From contig JAVRCV020000041.1 of assembly GCA_034530615.2 (NCBI GenBank), positions 160,001 through 224,000 on the forward strand: 64,000 nucleotides of DNA, written 5' to 3'. Positions 39,662 to 45,756 of the stretch are shown here, in pieces. This DNA is from Aulosira sp. ZfuVER01 (lineage in GTDB: Bacteria > Cyanobacteriota > Cyanobacteriia > Cyanobacteriales > Nostocaceae). The notes under the pieces are model-generated. The model searched no databases and was not told the DNA's origin. It was given only the letters and a program-made list of their open reading frames with translations. A program made the position numbers and the translations under genes. Numbering within the stretch: the first letter of the stretch is position 1; every line of letters starts with the position of its first letter.

Positions 39662-39967
39662 TTAAACACTCAATTTACGAAAATTTAACCTTGTATTAAC
39701 CAAATGCAATTTCTGCGATAACTTAAGATATTGCACCCAAGGTTGCTCAGATAACTGGGCAATAGCATTTGCAGAAAGGTTTGCGGTAAAAACATCCTTT
39801 CCCTCAGCGATCCCACTGATACCTAAATTTTCTAGCACAGCAGTAGCAGTCGAGTCTATAACAGGTTCAGTATGGATAAAAACTGTCAAACTCGGTGTTT
39901 CTGGATCTTGTACTTCATTGAGTGCTGTCGCCAGTGCTGCGTCTAGCTTCTGATAATTCATAAGCAA
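39662..39967 (-). CDS. Small hypothetical protein, possibly subtilase-propeptide/I9-like fold
   Basis: Plausible 99-101 aa ORF with AAGGA RBS. The pattern KLDAAL..VFTANLS..IAQLSEQPWVQYL recalls S8 propeptides (inference). Confidence 0.65.
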   Translation of the reverse strand: MLMNYQKLDAALATALNEVQDPETPSLTVFIHTEPVIDSTATAVLENLGISGIAEGKDVFTANLSANAIAQLSEQPWVQYLKLSQKLHLVNTRLNFRKLSV

Positions 39968-40454: not shown

Positions 40455-41729
40455 TTATAAATTTTTAAATAAATCTATAAAATCACTAACAGTATCTTTC
40501 ATCTTTACTCCTAGGATTTTATTTGGAGAGTTATCTAAAACATTATTTAAGATATCAATAATTGCTAATCCTTTCATACTTATTAAATAATCATAGGCAT
40601 CTGTTGATAGTCTTTCTATAAGTGCTTCTTTACTCTCACCCATGTGTATAGTATCCCAAATTCTCACATTTTTATCGTCACCGCCAGAAGCGATAAATTT
40701 ACCATCATAGCTAAAACTAACGCTATTGATTTGGACTCCATGCCAAAATTCTGCAATTGGTTGTGAATTTTCATAATCTGGATTGGTGGTACTCCAAACT
40801 CTAACAAATCCATCTTTACTACCAGAGACAAGCATATTAGCATCAGCATTAAAACTGACTCCAAAAACTGCATCTTTATGTAGACAATTTTTAATAACCT
40901 GCTCTGTAGTTATATCCCATATCCGTACACGTTTATCTTTATAAGCTGCACCGATCATCTGACCATTTGAACTAAATTTAACATCATAGACTGCATTTTC
41001 TGTGTCTTCTAAATTTTCAGATTTATCTACTAAAGATTTTAGAAATTTCTTATCAGCAACATTCCAAATTTTTATTTCACTATTTCCACCAGCAGAAGCA
41101 ATTTTAGTACCATCATGACTAAAACATACTCCATAAACTTTAGGATCGTGCTGGCCAATCTCTATAAATTCATGCCGATTATCATCTAAAAGCTGCCAAA
41201 GTCTTACTCTATTATCCCAGTTAGCTGATGTAATTAACTTACTATCAGGACTGAACATCAGCTTTAAAGCTATTTGTTCTTCATCATCTGCTTCTGGCAT
41301 AATTGTTATATCAACACTATTACCATTTATGCTTTTTATTTTGATGATTCCGTCAGCATCACCCGAAGCAATCAATTCACCATCGTAACTAAAATTAACA
41401 GCCCAAACCGGACTATCATGTTTAATCTGCAAATTTTCAATAATTTTCCAGGAAGTTGGTAAAAAAATGTCGTCTTTTTGCTTGCGCCAAACTTTGACAG
41501 TTTTATCTACACTTGCAGATGCAATCATACTCCCATCATAGCTGACTCTTACATCATTTACATTCCCATCATGTGCGGGAACTTCACCATTTTCTCTTGG
41601 TAAGCGCCGACCATATTTACCTTCATATATCATTTCCTGAATATAATAAACAGCATTCGGATTTTGTTCAATTATATATTTAATTAATTCGTACAAAATT
41701 TTTTGGAATTCACTGTTGCGCTGTATCAT
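40455..41729 (-). CDS. Stand-alone WD40 beta-propeller protein (about 7 blades)
   Basis: Repeats of H..V..V.FS.DG..IAS...D..V..W in AT-rich sequence. Confidence 0.9.
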   Translation of the reverse strand: MIQRNSEFQKILYELIKYIIEQNPNAVYYIQEMIYEGKYGRRLPRENGEVPAHDGNVNDVRVSYDGSMIASASVDKTVKVWRKQKDDIFLPTSWKIIENLQIKHDSPVWAVNFSYDGELIASGDADGIIKIKSINGNSVDITIMPEADDEEQIALKLMFSPDSKLITSANWDNRVRLWQLLDDNRHEFIEIGQHDPKVYGVCFSHDGTKIASAGGNSEIKIWNVADKKFLKSLVDKSENLEDTENAVYDVKFSSNGQMIGAAYKDKRVRIWDITTEQVIKNCLHKDAVFGVSFNADANMLVSGSKDGFVRVWSTTNPDYENSQPIAEFWHGVQINSVSFSYDGKFIASGGDDKNVRIWDTIHMGESKEALIERLSTDAYDYLISMKGLAIIDILNNVLDNSPNKILGVKMKDTVSDFIDLFKNL

Positions 41730-41773: not shown

Positions 41774-44700
41774 TCACATCAAACCATCACAAATATGTTT
41801 ATCTTCTTGTGAAATTTGCAAGTTAGTATTTAAATAATCATGCAAATAACTACAACTTATTTTCAACAGATTGTTTATTGAATTAGTATCTTTGGTGTTG
41901 ATACTTGGACTGACACTCCAAATTCTCACAAGTTTGTTATCAGCCGAGACTATTATTTGCTCTTTAGGACTAAAATAAACACTGTTTACAGTATCATTAT
42001 GCCAAAACTGCCATAATATCTTGTTATCAGGAATGCTCCAAATACTGACAGTTTTATCTTTACTGGCAGCAGCTACCATTTTACTATCTGGACTAAAACT
42101 GACTCCATAAACTGTATCTTTGTGAAGAAAATCTCTGATTAATTTACCATTAGTAACATTCCAAATTTTCACACTTTTATCCTTACTGGCAGAAGCTAGC
42201 ATGGTATCATCTGGACTAAAACTGACTCCATAAACTGTATCTTTATGTTTCGCTAAATCATTGATTATTTTCTTATTGGCAAGATTCCAAACTTTGATAC
42301 GCTTATCTTCACCTGCTGAAGCAATTTTTTGACTATTTTTGTTAAAACTTACTCCCTGAACAATAGCACCATGAGGTAATTTATGAATTAATTGTGCGTC
42401 TGCAACTCTCCAAATTCTGACATCATTATCAAAGTTAGCAGCTGCAATAGTTTTATCGTCATGACTAAAACTCAGTTTCAAAACACTTCTATTGTCTTTT
42501 TTGAGATCCTTTTGTGGAATTGTTGTTTTTAGGCTACCGTCTTTACTGTTCCAAATTCTGATGACTCCATCACCATCACCGGTGGCTATTAATTTACCAT
42601 CATGACTAAAACTCACAGTCCAAACTGGATAGTTGTGTTGTAGAGGCTCTGTAAATTGTTTACCTTCCCTAGTCCATAGCCTGACAGTTTGATCGGCACT
42701 AGCAGAGGCAATCATTTTACCATCAGGGCTAATGCTAACATCATTAACTCTATCAGTATGTCCTGCTAGGCGATTACGTTCTTGAGATTGATAAATGATG
42801 CTTTGGAGACTAGTAAGCGCATACTGCTGTTTTCCACCAATTTCTTTTAATTTTTTCAGTGCTTTTACACTTTCTATTAGTGCTTCAAGTTGATAGTGAA
42901 CTGTAAATAATTGTTGTGGTTTAGCAATTAAAACTTCCACAACAGCTTTTTCACGTTGTTCTGCTTGTTGCTTCAATCCAATCGCTAAAACAGTAACTAC
43001 TAATAATCCAGCAACTACTAACGACAGCCACCAATTTTTTTGTTTTTCAGCGTGAACTCTATTTCGCGCTTCCTGAGTTTTTTCAGCTTCAGCTTTGGCT
43101 CTTGTCTCTGCTTCTTGTTGACGATATTCTGCTAGTTCTCTGAGTAGCCGTTCTTGGTCTAATTGTGATTGTATTTCTCTATCTTTTTTTGCCAAACTCT
43201 TATCTAAAAACTCAGCTTCCTGTGGTGTCAGTCTTGGCTGAGTTCTCTCTACCCACTCAGCAATTATTGCCAGCTTTGCACCAGTCAATAGAGCATCATC
43301 CGATTTATTAAATCTTTGTTGCCATTCGTGGCAATCTTCATCTAAGGAGCGACTTAGACGAATATTCTCTTGATTTTCAGCAATCCAACTATTGAGTAAT
43401 TTCCATTCAGATAAAAGTGCTTCATGAGCTACCTCTACTGTATTAGCATCAGTAATAATCAAGCGTTGTTGGGAACCCGCTAGTAATCCCACAACTCGTT
43501 GCATTTGTGGTTGTGAATCTGCAACTGCTTCTAATCTCTCCCAGCTAGCACGCCGTCGAGTTACTTCCCCAGCTTCACCTAACTGCACCAATTCCATAAA
43601 CAGGCGACGTACAAATGCTTGATCTAAGCTAGTTAAACTTTGATACAAAATTGTAGCTCGCTTATCTAAAGCTCCTTTAACTCCACCAATTTCTTCATAG
43701 CCTTTATGAGTTAAAAGTGGTTCTGGAAATTCAGGTTTTTCAATACAAACTCGCCACAACTCTTTAAGTGCGTATTGCAGTATAGGTAATGCACCCGGAC
43801 GATTAATAACATCGGCAGCAATTTGTGAGACTAAACTATTTTCAAAAGTCACACCATGTAAATTTGCCGGTTTTTCAATTGCTTCCTCTAAATCGGTAAA
43901 AGACATTGGCGTGACAATGAACGATGTGGGAGGAACACTATTAATTAGATCAGCTATTTCTAAATAGTCAGCACATCTATTTAAAAAATCACCACGAATT
44001 GTGAGAATTATCCGTGTTTGTCGTTCATTAGTTTTAACTTCCTCTACTACTAATTTAATAAAAGCTTTGCGTTCTGCTTCATCTTGACAGAGAGTAAATA
44101 TTTCTTCAAATTGATCGATAAACAACAGATAGAGTTTATTTTGCTGCTGTTGTTGAGTTAGAACTTCAACAAGTTTGCCTAGGGGATTTTCTCCAGGGGT
44201 AAAAGATGCAATTTCCCATTGACTACTTCCAGGGAGGCGAGCGCTTTTTAGTTGCGGTAACAATCCTGCTTTCACTAAGGACGATTTGCCACTACCTGAA
44301 TAGCCGATGACAGCTAGAAAACGACTCTCTGCTAAACGCGCAATTAGAGTACGAACTGCTTGCTCTCGTCCACAAAAATATTGTGCTTGTTCTAATTCAA
44401 AAGCATAAAGTCCTCGATAAGGGTTTTCACGATTGAAAGCTGATGTTTCTTCTGTGGGAATATCTGAACGAGGATATGTCACCAGAGTTATCGAACGTCC
44501 CCAACCCATGCGAATCGGTTCCTGTACTGAACCTTTAAGTTCGTTACTGACAAAATCAAACAAGCGATCGCCACTAATTCGCTGACTGCTACTCGCATTT
44601 TCCGGTGCTAATCCCTTAATAACTGCACCTGTGAAAATGCTATATTCTTCACTTTTAATTACGCCTGCTAGTTCAAAACCACGACAAGCTGTAATTAAGT

Positions 44701-45235
44701 AATAATCCTTCTGCGAACTGAAAGTAGTCAAAGTACGTTCTACCAACTGTCTTTCTAAGAAATAGCCGCTATGACAGCAATCCAGTAGCATCACCAAACT
44801 ACTCAATTGCGAATCTCTAATTAGTTCGTTGAGGCTATCTAAGGGAATGGCATATTTTTGTTCGACAATCTGGTTGTTTGCAACTTCAATCTGACAATCA
44901 GAAGTTGCTAAATATCCTTTTTGCTGTCCTAAATTGTCCGATATCGTAAAACCATGTCCACTAAAATAAATTAGCGCTTCATTTTTAGTAGCTTGTTCTA
45001 GTAAGAATGTTCTCAGTTCTTGACCAATTTGAGCGCCAGTCAACTTTGATGCTGCTATTTCATAACCGTTTTTGTCTTTGTTCCAGCGTTGCGGTAGCCT
45101 TTGAACTGACTGAAAATCACCATACTTTTCTAGTAATTGCGCTACGGCTTCAGCATCATTTGTGGTCTTTGACAAACGGGGTAATGAAGGGCTTTGATAC
45201 TCCCCAATGCCAATAACAAGCGCGTATCGTGCCAT
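41774..45235 (-). CDS. Caspase (peptidase C14) - nSTAND1 NTPase - TM - WD40 protein
   Basis: YALVIGI, FSGHG and LDCCHSG give an intact His/Cys dyad. Also NPYRGL, Walker A GYSGSGKSS, Walker B LFIDQFEE, PGALPILQYAL, VEVAHEAL, hydrophobic WWLSLVVAGLLVVTVLAIGL and about 7 WD40 blades. Confidence 0.92.
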   Translation of the reverse strand: MARYALVIGIGEYQSPSLPRLSKTTNDAEAVAQLLEKYGDFQSVQRLPQRWNKDKNGYEIAASKLTGAQIGQELRTFLLEQATKNEALIYFSGHGFTISDNLGQQKGYLATSDCQIEVANNQIVEQKYAIPLDSLNELIRDSQLSSLVMLLDCCHSGYFLERQLVERTLTTFSSQKDYYLITACRGFELAGVIKSEEYSIFTGAVIKGLAPENASSSQRISGDRLFDFVSNELKGSVQEPIRMGWGRSITLVTYPRSDIPTEETSAFNRENPYRGLYAFELEQAQYFCGREQAVRTLIARLAESRFLAVIGYSGSGKSSLVKAGLLPQLKSARLPGSSQWEIASFTPGENPLGKLVEVLTQQQQQNKLYLLFIDQFEEIFTLCQDEAERKAFIKLVVEEVKTNERQTRIILTIRGDFLNRCADYLEIADLINSVPPTSFIVTPMSFTDLEEAIEKPANLHGVTFENSLVSQIAADVINRPGALPILQYALKELWRVCIEKPEFPEPLLTHKGYEEIGGVKGALDKRATILYQSLTSLDQAFVRRLFMELVQLGEAGEVTRRRASWERLEAVADSQPQMQRVVGLLAGSQQRLIITDANTVEVAHEALLSEWKLLNSWIAENQENIRLSRSLDEDCHEWQQRFNKSDDALLTGAKLAIIAEWVERTQPRLTPQEAEFLDKSLAKKDREIQSQLDQERLLRELAEYRQQEAETRAKAEAEKTQEARNRVHAEKQKNWWLSLVVAGLLVVTVLAIGLKQQAEQREKAVVEVLIAKPQQLFTVHYQLEALIESVKALKKLKEIGGKQQYALTSLQSIIYQSQERNRLAGHTDRVNDVSISPDGKMIASASADQTVRLWTREGKQFTEPLQHNYPVWTVSFSHDGKLIATGDGDGVIRIWNSKDGSLKTTIPQKDLKKDNRSVLKLSFSHDDKTIAAANFDNDVRIWRVADAQLIHKLPHGAIVQGVSFNKNSQKIASAGEDKRIKVWNLANKKIINDLAKHKDTVYGVSFSPDDTMLASASKDKSVKIWNVTNGKLIRDFLHKDTVYGVSFSPDSKMVAAASKDKTVSIWSIPDNKILWQFWHNDTVNSVYFSPKEQIIVSADNKLVRIWSVSPSINTKDTNSINNLLKISCSYLHDYLNTNLQISQEDKHICDGLM

Positions 45236-45384
45236 CTAATACACCTTGAGTTGGTAAATGCGAGTTAATTTTGACAGGTACACATTGATGGTGGTATTAA
45301 GAAAAACAATACCACAACCAAATTATTCCGCAAGCAGGCTGAAATTTTTCACACACGATACAAAAAGTTTAATTGAGGCAGCCC

Positions 45385-45756
45385 ATGTCAGAAGTGCAGC
45401 GTCTATTTTTTGAAGCGGACGGAGAAATTGACCAGATTGAGATTAATCTCTCAGCAACTGAAACAACTCCGGAAATTGATGAAGAAGATGACGGTATAGA
45501 ATACAAGGATGTACGCACAGATGCGATCGCACGTATGCAACAAGCTCGTCAAATGATTCGTGGCTATACCACGTATGCTCTTAGTGCCTTTAAAGACTTC
45601 AATAGTGCTGAAATTGAGGAAGTAACCCTGAAATTTGGGATTAAGATGGGTGGCAAGGCTGGCATTCCTTACATTACAGAAGGTTCAGCTGAAAGTAATT
45701 TGGAAATTGAAGTGAAGTGCAAATTTCCAGACAAACAAAAACCAATTTCTCAATAG
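45385..45756 (+). CDS. Trypco1 / CU044_2847-like small protein
   Basis: Acidic N-terminus, a helix, then EEVTLKFGIKMGGKAGIPYITEGSAESNLEIEVKC. Divergent from the caspase gene. Confidence 0.78.
   Translation: MSEVQRLFFEADGEIDQIEINLSATETTPEIDEEDDGIEYKDVRTDAIARMQQARQMIRGYTTYALSAFKDFNSAEIEEVTLKFGIKMGGKAGIPYITEGSAESNLEIEVKCKFPDKQKPISQ

Follow-up and report, generated by a model that had tools for sequence, protein, structure and literature searches.

Introduction

What does a cyanobacterial caspase cut, and what sets it off? To our knowledge, defined substrates and triggers have long been lacking for the cyanobacterial caspase homologues. The question arises here from a locus of Aulosira sp. ZfuVER01, contained in a stretch of 64,000 nucleotides of contig JAVRCV020000041.1 (the window), in which a gene for a caspase fused to a STAND ATPase and a WD40 propeller stands head-to-head with a gene for a small Trypco1 protein. 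Judged by its neighbouring genes and its relatives, the window comes from a filamentous cyanobacterium of the Nostocaceae type. An initial annotation, made from the sequence alone, had proposed the two genes as a candidate immunity or cell-death module. It named the receptor and Trypco1 correctly; a third gene behind the receptor (40455-41729, outside the region then considered), the predicted outward orientation of the sensor and the fact that such systems had already been characterised were missed. We propose that a ligand outside the cytoplasm oligomerises the receptor, that its caspase cuts Trypco1 at K41 and that the resulting fragment forms a lethal pore, a course of events that we regard as probable.

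The class of system is already known, because Evans et al. characterised Pepco-protease activation (10.1101/2025.11.14.688446). In the available parts of that study, Pepco unites Trypco1 and Trypco2; cyanobacteria are among its hosts, and its partners include serine proteases, cysteine proteases and transmembrane STAND ATPases. SsPepco forms beta-barrels of 9-10 subunits and is activated once the trypsin-like SsAvs4 cuts after Ile97, thereby removing a C-terminal tail; it is encoded immediately upstream of the protease, whose trigger is a phage portal, and cutting of the C-terminal tail after a conserved Ile is tied to the serine-protease-linked Pepco proteins. SDS resistance of the barrel and toxicity that depends on cleavage are further marks of a Pepco pore effector. 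Our literature search returned three papers that name Trypco1 and no description of a divergent caspase-Trypco1 pairing, of an N-terminal cut with a pocket rule or of a sensor-partner cassette, with the limit that Fig. 5A and the supplement of Evans et al. could show such loci. Measured against the literature searched, the predicted N-terminal cut with its pocket rule, the predicted outward-facing propeller and the co-swapping third gene are new.

Results

The caspase receptor and Trypco1 form a conserved divergent pair

A divergent caspase gene lies beside 114 of the 134 Trypco1 ORFs that were found in 138 related loci, and the pairing on which the initial annotation had built is thus conserved. 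The other 20 ORFs are truncated copies without a receptor, stand at contig edges or belong to distant homologues. Because this set is biased towards the window query, a PF19493 survey of cyanobacterial genomes was added (201 genomes, 34 with a match, 65 places listed, Trypco1 ORF recovered in 64). For the neighbouring genes, 65 of 111 N-termini were scanned against Pfam, those unrelated-looking by eye being left out. A caspase or trypsin neighbour accompanies 42 of the 64 surveyed Trypco1 genes, while 22 have neither. Caspase neighbours detected by Pfam are head-to-head in all 14 cases, one of them the window's own, and trypsin neighbours follow downstream in tandem on the same strand in 28/28; kin are not independent, hence a Fisher test overstates the significance of this split. 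Among 58 close loci with enough flank, both genes are intact in 36, the receptor is broken in 13, and a truncated Trypco1 without receptor is left in nine; a truncated Trypco1 beside an intact receptor occurs in none of the 58 (duplicates not removed). A three-gene set of the window's type recurs at another chromosomal site in the genome G012, and again in G269, there with the receptor divided among three ORFs.

Profile searches recovered all three domains that the initial annotation had named, Peptidase_C14, nSTAND1 and Trypco1, each above its Pfam cut-off, and the order of caspase, nSTAND1, hydrophobic helix and WD40 repeats was borne out, seven WD40 stretches being matched (Table 1). The catalytic motifs are present (S92-G-H94-G and D152-C-C154). 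Catalytic and Walker residues are invariant in 56/56 full-length receptor relatives, and H94 and C154 are kept in all 115 aligned caspases. A profile search with the caspase matched Yca1, TbMCA2, AtMC4 and MALT1; a search of the PDB with the single caspase sequence had returned nothing useful. The hydrophobic helix (mean Kyte-Doolittle hydropathy 2.56) is present as a single helix in 56/56 full-length receptors, with an excess of Lys/Arg on its N side in 56/56 and at least two Cys within the last 55 residues in 56/56; Cys is aligned at the Cys1128 and Cys1149 columns in 56/56 and 54/56 relatives, respectively. Because helix, N-side charge excess and terminal Cys pair recur in all 56, we predict that the propeller sits in the periplasm or the thylakoid lumen, and caspase and ATPase in the cytoplasm.

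The small gene scores well above the cut-offs of both Trypco1 profiles (PF19493, 69.1 against 24.6 bits; NF041216, 89.6 against 23 bits). The AlphaFold2 monomer (overall pLDDT 60) has an N-terminal hairpin (residues 2-23), an acidic disordered linker (23-42), a helix (41-70) and a beta-hairpin (76-113). The acidic, probably disordered segment noted earlier corresponds to residues 30-44, pLDDT falls below 50 across residues 23-42, and the beta-hairpin expected behind it appears in the model. Polar and apolar faces alternate in both strands (77-92 and 98-114, moments 0.51 and 0.55). In the basal helix the moment is 0.46 at 54-71 and lower, 0.23-0.26, at 43-64. The charged lumen face and hydrophobic outer face of a Pepco hairpin are thus found in the window Trypco1, and a C-terminal tail cut after a conserved Ile is not: past the last strand (about 113-114) only nine residues follow, which are unconserved and often absent in relatives. 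Among 48,161 chains, VIA-align matched none to the monomer at Z >=5.

The 149-bp gap reported between the two start codons was confirmed and is presumably a shared control region. Related divergent gaps have a median of 146 bp (101 distinct gaps), with a strong consensus among the 50 closest. A scan for promoters and terminators stayed at chance (17 sites against 22.7 in shuffled sequence), with none inside the gap, and no RNA holder was listed. An 8-bp inverted repeat in the window's gap was considered as an operator and rejected, since the pattern occurs in 1/101 distinct gaps.

Table 1. Features of the locus, in window coordinates
Feature	Position	Strand	Details
Receptor gene (1153 aa)	41774..45235	-	caspase-like protease, nSTAND1 ATPase, coiled linker, one membrane helix, helical cap, 7-blade WD40 propeller, C-terminal Cys pair
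Peptidase_C14 domain, residues 3-234	44534..45229	-	Pfam, 62.4 bits (cut-off 21.4)
Catalytic dyad H94 and C154	44954-44956 (H94); 44774-44776 (C154)	-	acidic pocket residues D27 and D152
Ser92, two residues ahead of the catalytic His	44960..44962	-	covaries with Trypco1 linker residue
nSTAND1 ATPase, residues 272-643	43307..44422	-	PF20703, 379.9 bits; Walker A 311-318, Walker B from 371
Single membrane helix, residues 736-754	42974..43030	-	predicted N-in/C-out
Hypervariable WD40 sensor, residues 821-1110	41906..42775	-	predicted periplasmic (or lumenal); ectodomain pI 9.2
Cys1128 and Cys1149	41789..41854	-	probable disulfide
Divergent intergenic region, 149 bp	45236..45384		presumed shared control region
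Trypco1/Pepco effector, 123 aa	45385..45756	+	ATG at 45385, stop at 45756; Pfam and NF041216
Predicted cleavage site, K41/D42	45505..45510	+	inferred from covariation
Alternative cleavage site, R44	45514-45516	+	in 11/11 close homologues, 11/57 distant ones
Partner gene, 424 aa	40455..41729	-	stand-alone acidic WD40 protein; co-oriented, 44 bp downstream of receptor

The Trypco1 linker covaries with one presumed pocket residue of the caspase

In caspase-linked Trypco1 proteins the linker reads X-[Gly/Asp]-hydrophobic directly ahead of the helix, X being Lys41 in the window. Trypsin-linked Trypco1 proteins carry Val/Ile followed by a small residue in the linker in 28/28, compared to 5/14 of the caspase-linked ones, which agrees with the Ile specificity given for SsAvs4 in the available parts of Evans et al. 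(10.1101/2025.11.14.688446). Across 42 caspase representatives with less than 80% identity, drawn from the 115, the linker residue X follows caspase residue 92: Lys occurs with Ser (12/12), Arg with Ala or Gly (8/8), and Tyr, Met or Gly with Thr (18/22). The rule is obeyed by 38 of the representatives, and no other caspase column reaches the mutual information of column 92 (0.74 bits, runner-up 0.51). It also holds in 17 of 17 held-out loci, which represent only about six lineages; the set had started from 48 pairs and was reduced by taking out duplicates, one broken locus and five pairs nearly identical to training sequences. On the caspase tree the residue-92 states recur in separate places, with ten changes. 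Pocket and linker covary, which suggests that they co-evolve.

Residue 92 aligns with the Ser of the HYSGHG motif in TbMCA2 and Yca1, a serine that we take to line the S1 pocket; a literature search on the pocket serine of TbMCA2 found no source naming that residue. From the covariation we predict that Trypco1 is cut N-terminally, between K41 and D42, and not in a C-terminal tail. Such a cut would strip the acidic N-terminal 41 residues, with a net charge of -12. The initial annotation had considered cleavage of Trypco1 by the caspase, possibly with release of an oligomerising hairpin effector; the covariation lends support to this, as do, by analogy, the experiments on another Pepco in the available parts of Evans et al. 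(10.1101/2025.11.14.688446). Two other assignments were dropped. Arg44 had been the first choice as cut site, being present in 11/11 close homologues, and was demoted to an alternative after a wider alignment found it in only 11/57 distant ones. A strictly basic P1 for every caspase-linked Trypco1 was also rejected. The pocket rule predicts that proteases of family C14 exist that cut after hydrophobic residues, and it defines a swap of Ser, Ala or Thr at position 92 against Lys, Arg or Tyr/Met in Trypco1.

Trypco1 genes also occur in other settings. They are present in 19/24 genomes of the window's family, compared to 0/73 of family f35, and the window's own genome (G000) holds three more. One is divergent from a caspase-nSTAND1-pentapeptide protein (G000:C74:421-4391, L042). 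This pair shares Ser92 with the window locus and has a Lys-Gly linker, and for this reason cross-cleavage between them is possible. Another stands in tandem with a trypsin-AAA_35 protein (G000:C65, L043:6114-8036), and the third is an orphan adjoining a SWIM-finger gene (G000:C31, L044:2033-2395). A subgroup of Trypco1 proteins with a short linker (L004, L269, L280, L284, L285, L288, L292) has no protease neighbour within 1.5 kb, and four of them lie downstream of the same SWIM-finger gene. At two loci (L038:1003-8515 and L047:8128-15025) the head-to-head caspase heads what appears by eye to be a MoxR-vWA-FGE operon, which in L038 adjoins a reverse-transcriptase-like gene. In ten others (L117, L127, L128, L144, L157, L158, L160, L193, L225, L229) the divergent Trypco1 is kept and the caspase ORF has no nSTAND1 match; some of these caspases are 324-381 aa long, while others span 585-1678 aa and have C-terminal parts without an assigned domain.

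Propeller and downstream gene are exchanged together

Among 40 receptor orthologues, most of which adjoin glgC, mean identity is 89% in the caspase and 87% in nSTAND1, compared to 41% in the propeller (33% between sensor clades), and the drop begins in the coil ahead of the membrane helix. The dN/dS values between G000 and G012 follow the same division: Trypco1 and caspase are at 0.07 and nSTAND1 at 0.12, the propeller at 0.38 and the partner at 0.39 (dS 0.45-0.76). On a tree of the conserved part, the chassis, the sensor clades are scattered nearly at random (19 changes, 20.2 when shuffled). The class of the downstream gene takes seven changes on the ectodomain tree, where the shuffled mean is 19.3 and 0/200 shuffles were as low, and 18 changes on the chassis tree. 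Propeller and gene behind it are inherited together, independently of the chassis, and form what we take to be an exchangeable specificity cassette.

What the downstream genes encode differs between sensor clades. Repeat-rich disordered peptide ORFs follow the receptor in 17/17 members of clade 4, convergent papain-family peptidases with hypervariable tails in 12/14 of clades 19 and 20 (short convergent ORFs in the other 2/14), Cys-containing helical proteins in 2/2 of clade 14, and copies of the propeller in 2/2 of clade 7 and 3/4 of clade 16. The low-complexity threshold and the short-ORF class were fixed after the data had been seen. By BLAST linkage the partners fall into 24 families, and an automatic rule left 6 of 71 receptors without a partner. 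The ESM Atlas held no usable match for a clade-14 partner nor, judged by features, for the C-terminal 70 residues of the window partner, and structure matches for these 70 residues were all below threshold.

The window partner is 40% identical to and collinear with the receptor's own propeller, and no other paralogue in the genome scores as high against it (225 bits, next 164). Its family of five proteins has no hydrophobic helix and no C-terminal Cys pair, and is therefore predicted to be cytoplasmic. GC content is 0.327 in the partner gene and 0.345 in the region encoding the receptor ectodomain, with 0.413 for the genome. Orthologues are rare (one of 127 genomes in the genus of G079; four close relatives among the 33 proteins listed). 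A prediction of the complex of receptor ectodomain and partner scored 0.00 in two runs, which is no evidence either way.

One reading of the cassette is that the downstream genes are passengers: receptor and Trypco1 alone would make up the system, the neighbours being carried along in the recombined tract and the propeller copies being duplication debris. The heterogeneity of the partner families, the partner-less receptors and the two classes defined post hoc speak for this. We nevertheless consider it unlikely: the window partner is intact in five proteins of 64-100% identity, its dN/dS is 0.34-0.39, and although the membrane helix and the Cys pair are gone, many of its positions are invariant, among them a stretch at the N-terminus and an inserted loop. 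A short motif, NEH, is likewise retained. It occurs in three peptidase tails and in three ORFs of 45-52 aa that are left where the peptidase has gone; five of these six loci are present in the tree, where they form one supported sensor sub-clade.

The same retention fits a reading in which the receptor's own ligand, or a carrier of that ligand, is the product of the downstream gene and stays in the cytoplasm. The ligand would meet the periplasmic propeller only when the membrane is breached or a neighbour lyses, and the alleles would behave like pherotypes. This reading would also account for a partner class that tracks the ectodomain tree over the chassis tree, and for the peptide-like nature of many partners, with their disordered repeats, hypervariable peptidase tails and Cys-rich tails. 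The clade-16 propeller copies end in such a Cys-rich tail, and one partner-less receptor ends in one itself. In the window, an acidic partner (net charge -16) goes with a basic ectodomain (+9), and both have dN/dS values of about 0.39, compared to 0.07-0.12 in the chassis. However, adjacent genes travel together in any recombined tract, and co-variation alone is therefore no proof of binding. The window partner itself has no peptide-like or Cys-rich tail, one clade-16 receptor (L107) has no separate partner gene, and most ectodomains are basic whatever their partner, which makes the charge match weak evidence. The enrichment of Lys-Gly in the clade-4 peptides (25 against 12.8 +/- 3.2 shuffled) is owed largely to two loci. 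Sensing of self or damage is on balance a doubtful account.

Somewhat easier to defend, though still short of probable, is a foreign ligand in the periplasm, which might be a toxin or a protein of a phage or predator, with the partner acting as a decoy or regulator that buffers this ligand, sets a threshold or serves as bait. Phage proteins are what the protease-Pepco and STAND systems characterised so far respond to, and the fast change of the sensor suits an arms race. Sensor clades 7 and 16, which are separate from each other, both contain stand-alone propeller copies, and in 4/5 the best match is the copy's own receptor or that receptor's closest relative (in the window, 223 bits against a median of 100). 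Under the predicted topology, however, a cytoplasmic copy could not meet a periplasmic ligand, and the peptides and peptidases of most sensor clades would be left unexplained. Some other arrangement of ligand and partner appears less likely than any of these three.

Two observations concern genes around the cassette. The papain-family peptidases behind many receptors (L111:2152-3339, L171:500-2578 and 19 other loci) have no signal peptide evident by eye, and a conserved Gly-rich junction is followed by the hypervariable tail, which makes them candidate self-processing peptide precursors. Elsewhere in the window, a 101-aa ORF (39662-39967, minus strand) has no significant Pfam match. In related loci a gene for a 575-aa subtilase lies on the far side of Trypco1, and the homologue of the ORF directly follows it; the subtilase counterpart in the window's genome sits on contig C16 (81% identity). 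This ORF may be a separated propeptide or inhibitor.

Discussion

We describe here a caspase-STAND receptor and a Trypco1 protein whose proposed mode of action can be set out in order. A ligand outside the inner membrane would bind the WD40 propeller; by what is known of STAND biology, the nSTAND1 ATPases would then oligomerise and gather the caspase domains. The caspase would cut Trypco1 after Lys41 and free the fragment from its acidic N-terminal 41 residues. By analogy to SsPepco, the remaining helix and beta-hairpin would act as a Pepco-type beta-barrel pore that kills the cell and spares the rest of the filament. What the sequences show are the domains, the pairing, the covariation and the cassette exchange; topology and cut site are predicted, and oligomerisation, cleavage, pore and death are steps that we infer.

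Several points weigh against this proposal. The pore is an extrapolation, because SsPepco is cut in its C-terminal tail and its layout differs by eye. The first half of the Trypco1 helix is weakly amphipathic (moment 0.23-0.26 at 43-64). Four of the 42 representatives break the pocket rule. Placement by eye was used for 12 linker sites of the survey, of which nine belong to representatives, and when these are left out 31/34 fit. A tree-aware test of the covariation was underpowered, with two to three supported independent pairs, none opposite (p = 0.5), and the co-evolution of pocket and linker is therefore suggested, not proven. In TbMCA2, the available part of the literature reports that loss of the pocket Cys92 lowers activity (PMC5756287), and the window caspase has a Thr in its place. 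PADLOC returned a generic caspase model and weak MADS/HEAT matches, and no named system.

Non-lethal signalling would be a different outcome. The caspase would steer differentiation or an envelope response, and Trypco1 would be an inhibitor or adaptor and not a pore. The low-confidence monomer model leaves room for this, and Trypco1 itself is not among the proteins tested in the available parts of Evans et al. (10.1101/2025.11.14.688446). The same parts of the study group Trypco1 and Trypco2 as one family, however; the polarity of the Trypco1 hairpin fits a barrel, and the patchy distribution, frequent breaks and swapped cassettes seen here are what conflict loci typically show. We therefore hold a non-lethal role to be quite improbable, and a lethal Trypco1 pore released by the caspase remains the reading that we prefer.

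How does this proposed system compare to those already described? Like the SsPepco-SsAvs4 pair, as far as the latter is covered in the available parts of Evans et al. (10.1101/2025.11.14.688446), it places a small Pepco-family protein with helix and amphipathic hairpin beside a protease-STAND fusion. SsAvs4, in contrast, is trypsin-like, is preceded directly by its Pepco gene and cuts C-terminally, while the window pair has a caspase, stands head-to-head and is predicted to lose an N-terminal pro-piece at K41; it also adds the predicted outward-facing WD40 sensor and the co-varying third gene. Judged by eye from Table S1, the SsPepco sequence, presumably Trypco2-like, starts directly with the helix and has a long terminal tail. 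The Trypco1 layout is the reverse, with N-terminal hairpin and acidic linker first and almost no tail. The VMAP ternary systems, in the parts of Kaur et al. (2020, PMC7159879) available, contain Trypco paired with trypsin, and caspase paired with an alpha/beta-hydrolase, in MoxR-vWA loci. The window likewise has Trypco1 beside a peptidase in a multicellular bacterium; unlike there, this peptidase is a caspase, and inspection by eye found neither a MoxR nor a vWA gene next to the pair. In the EACC1-caspase two-gene systems, as presented in the same portions of both studies (Kaur et al., 2020; Evans et al., 2025), an EACC1 gene lies 5' of an NF047832-type caspase and the effector is activated by losing an autoinhibitory piece. 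The receptor resembles theirs in that the N-terminal caspase is constant while the C-terminal domains vary, STAND and transmembrane parts being among them. In contrast, the window caspase reaches 93 bits on NF047832 (cut-off 140), its effector is Trypco1, and EACC1 had no match among the four proteins scanned.

The caspase-STAND-WD40 architecture itself recalls cyanobacterial orthocaspases with WD40 or AAA domains and the Apaf-1-like bacterial STAND proteins. In the available parts of the orthocaspase literature, WD40 is the commonest accessory domain, and an acidic pocket and a basic P1 are expected (PMC8283722, PMC3501461, 10.64898/2026.01.04.697583). Many of the relatives collected here are, unlike these, predicted to cut after Tyr or Met, and no substrate, divergent Trypco1 or partner cassette is given for the orthocaspases in the same parts. 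The window locus offers a named candidate substrate, with a cut site predicted to the residue, for a cyanobacterial caspase, and it would extend the Pepco mechanism to the Trypco1 branch with an opposite polarity of activation.

The exchange of the sensor together with its neighbour has parallels as well. Staphylococcal agr, Bacillus ComQXP and fungal het-e/het-c all combine a conserved chassis with a hypervariable sensor that is inherited with its cognate gene. The likeness is one of description, in that sensor and neighbouring gene are co-inherited here too, the role of the partner as ligand being putative. The sensor-partner cassettes supply candidate ligands for a family of orphan outward-facing bacterial STAND receptors, and if the partner is the ligand, a multicellular bacterium would possess a system of damage or self-recognition. 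We put forward, tentatively and with more doubt than confidence, that filamentous cyanobacteria carry cell-surface death receptors which sense the product of a neighbouring gene, be it a peptide, a peptidase-borne or Cys-rich tail or, in the window, a soluble propeller, as a danger or self signal, with cassette alleles on a fixed caspase-STAND chassis and a Trypco1 pore fired through a code of a single pocket residue. If true, this sensing of a neighbouring gene's product would be the bacterial equivalent of allorecognition and of signalling by damage peptides.

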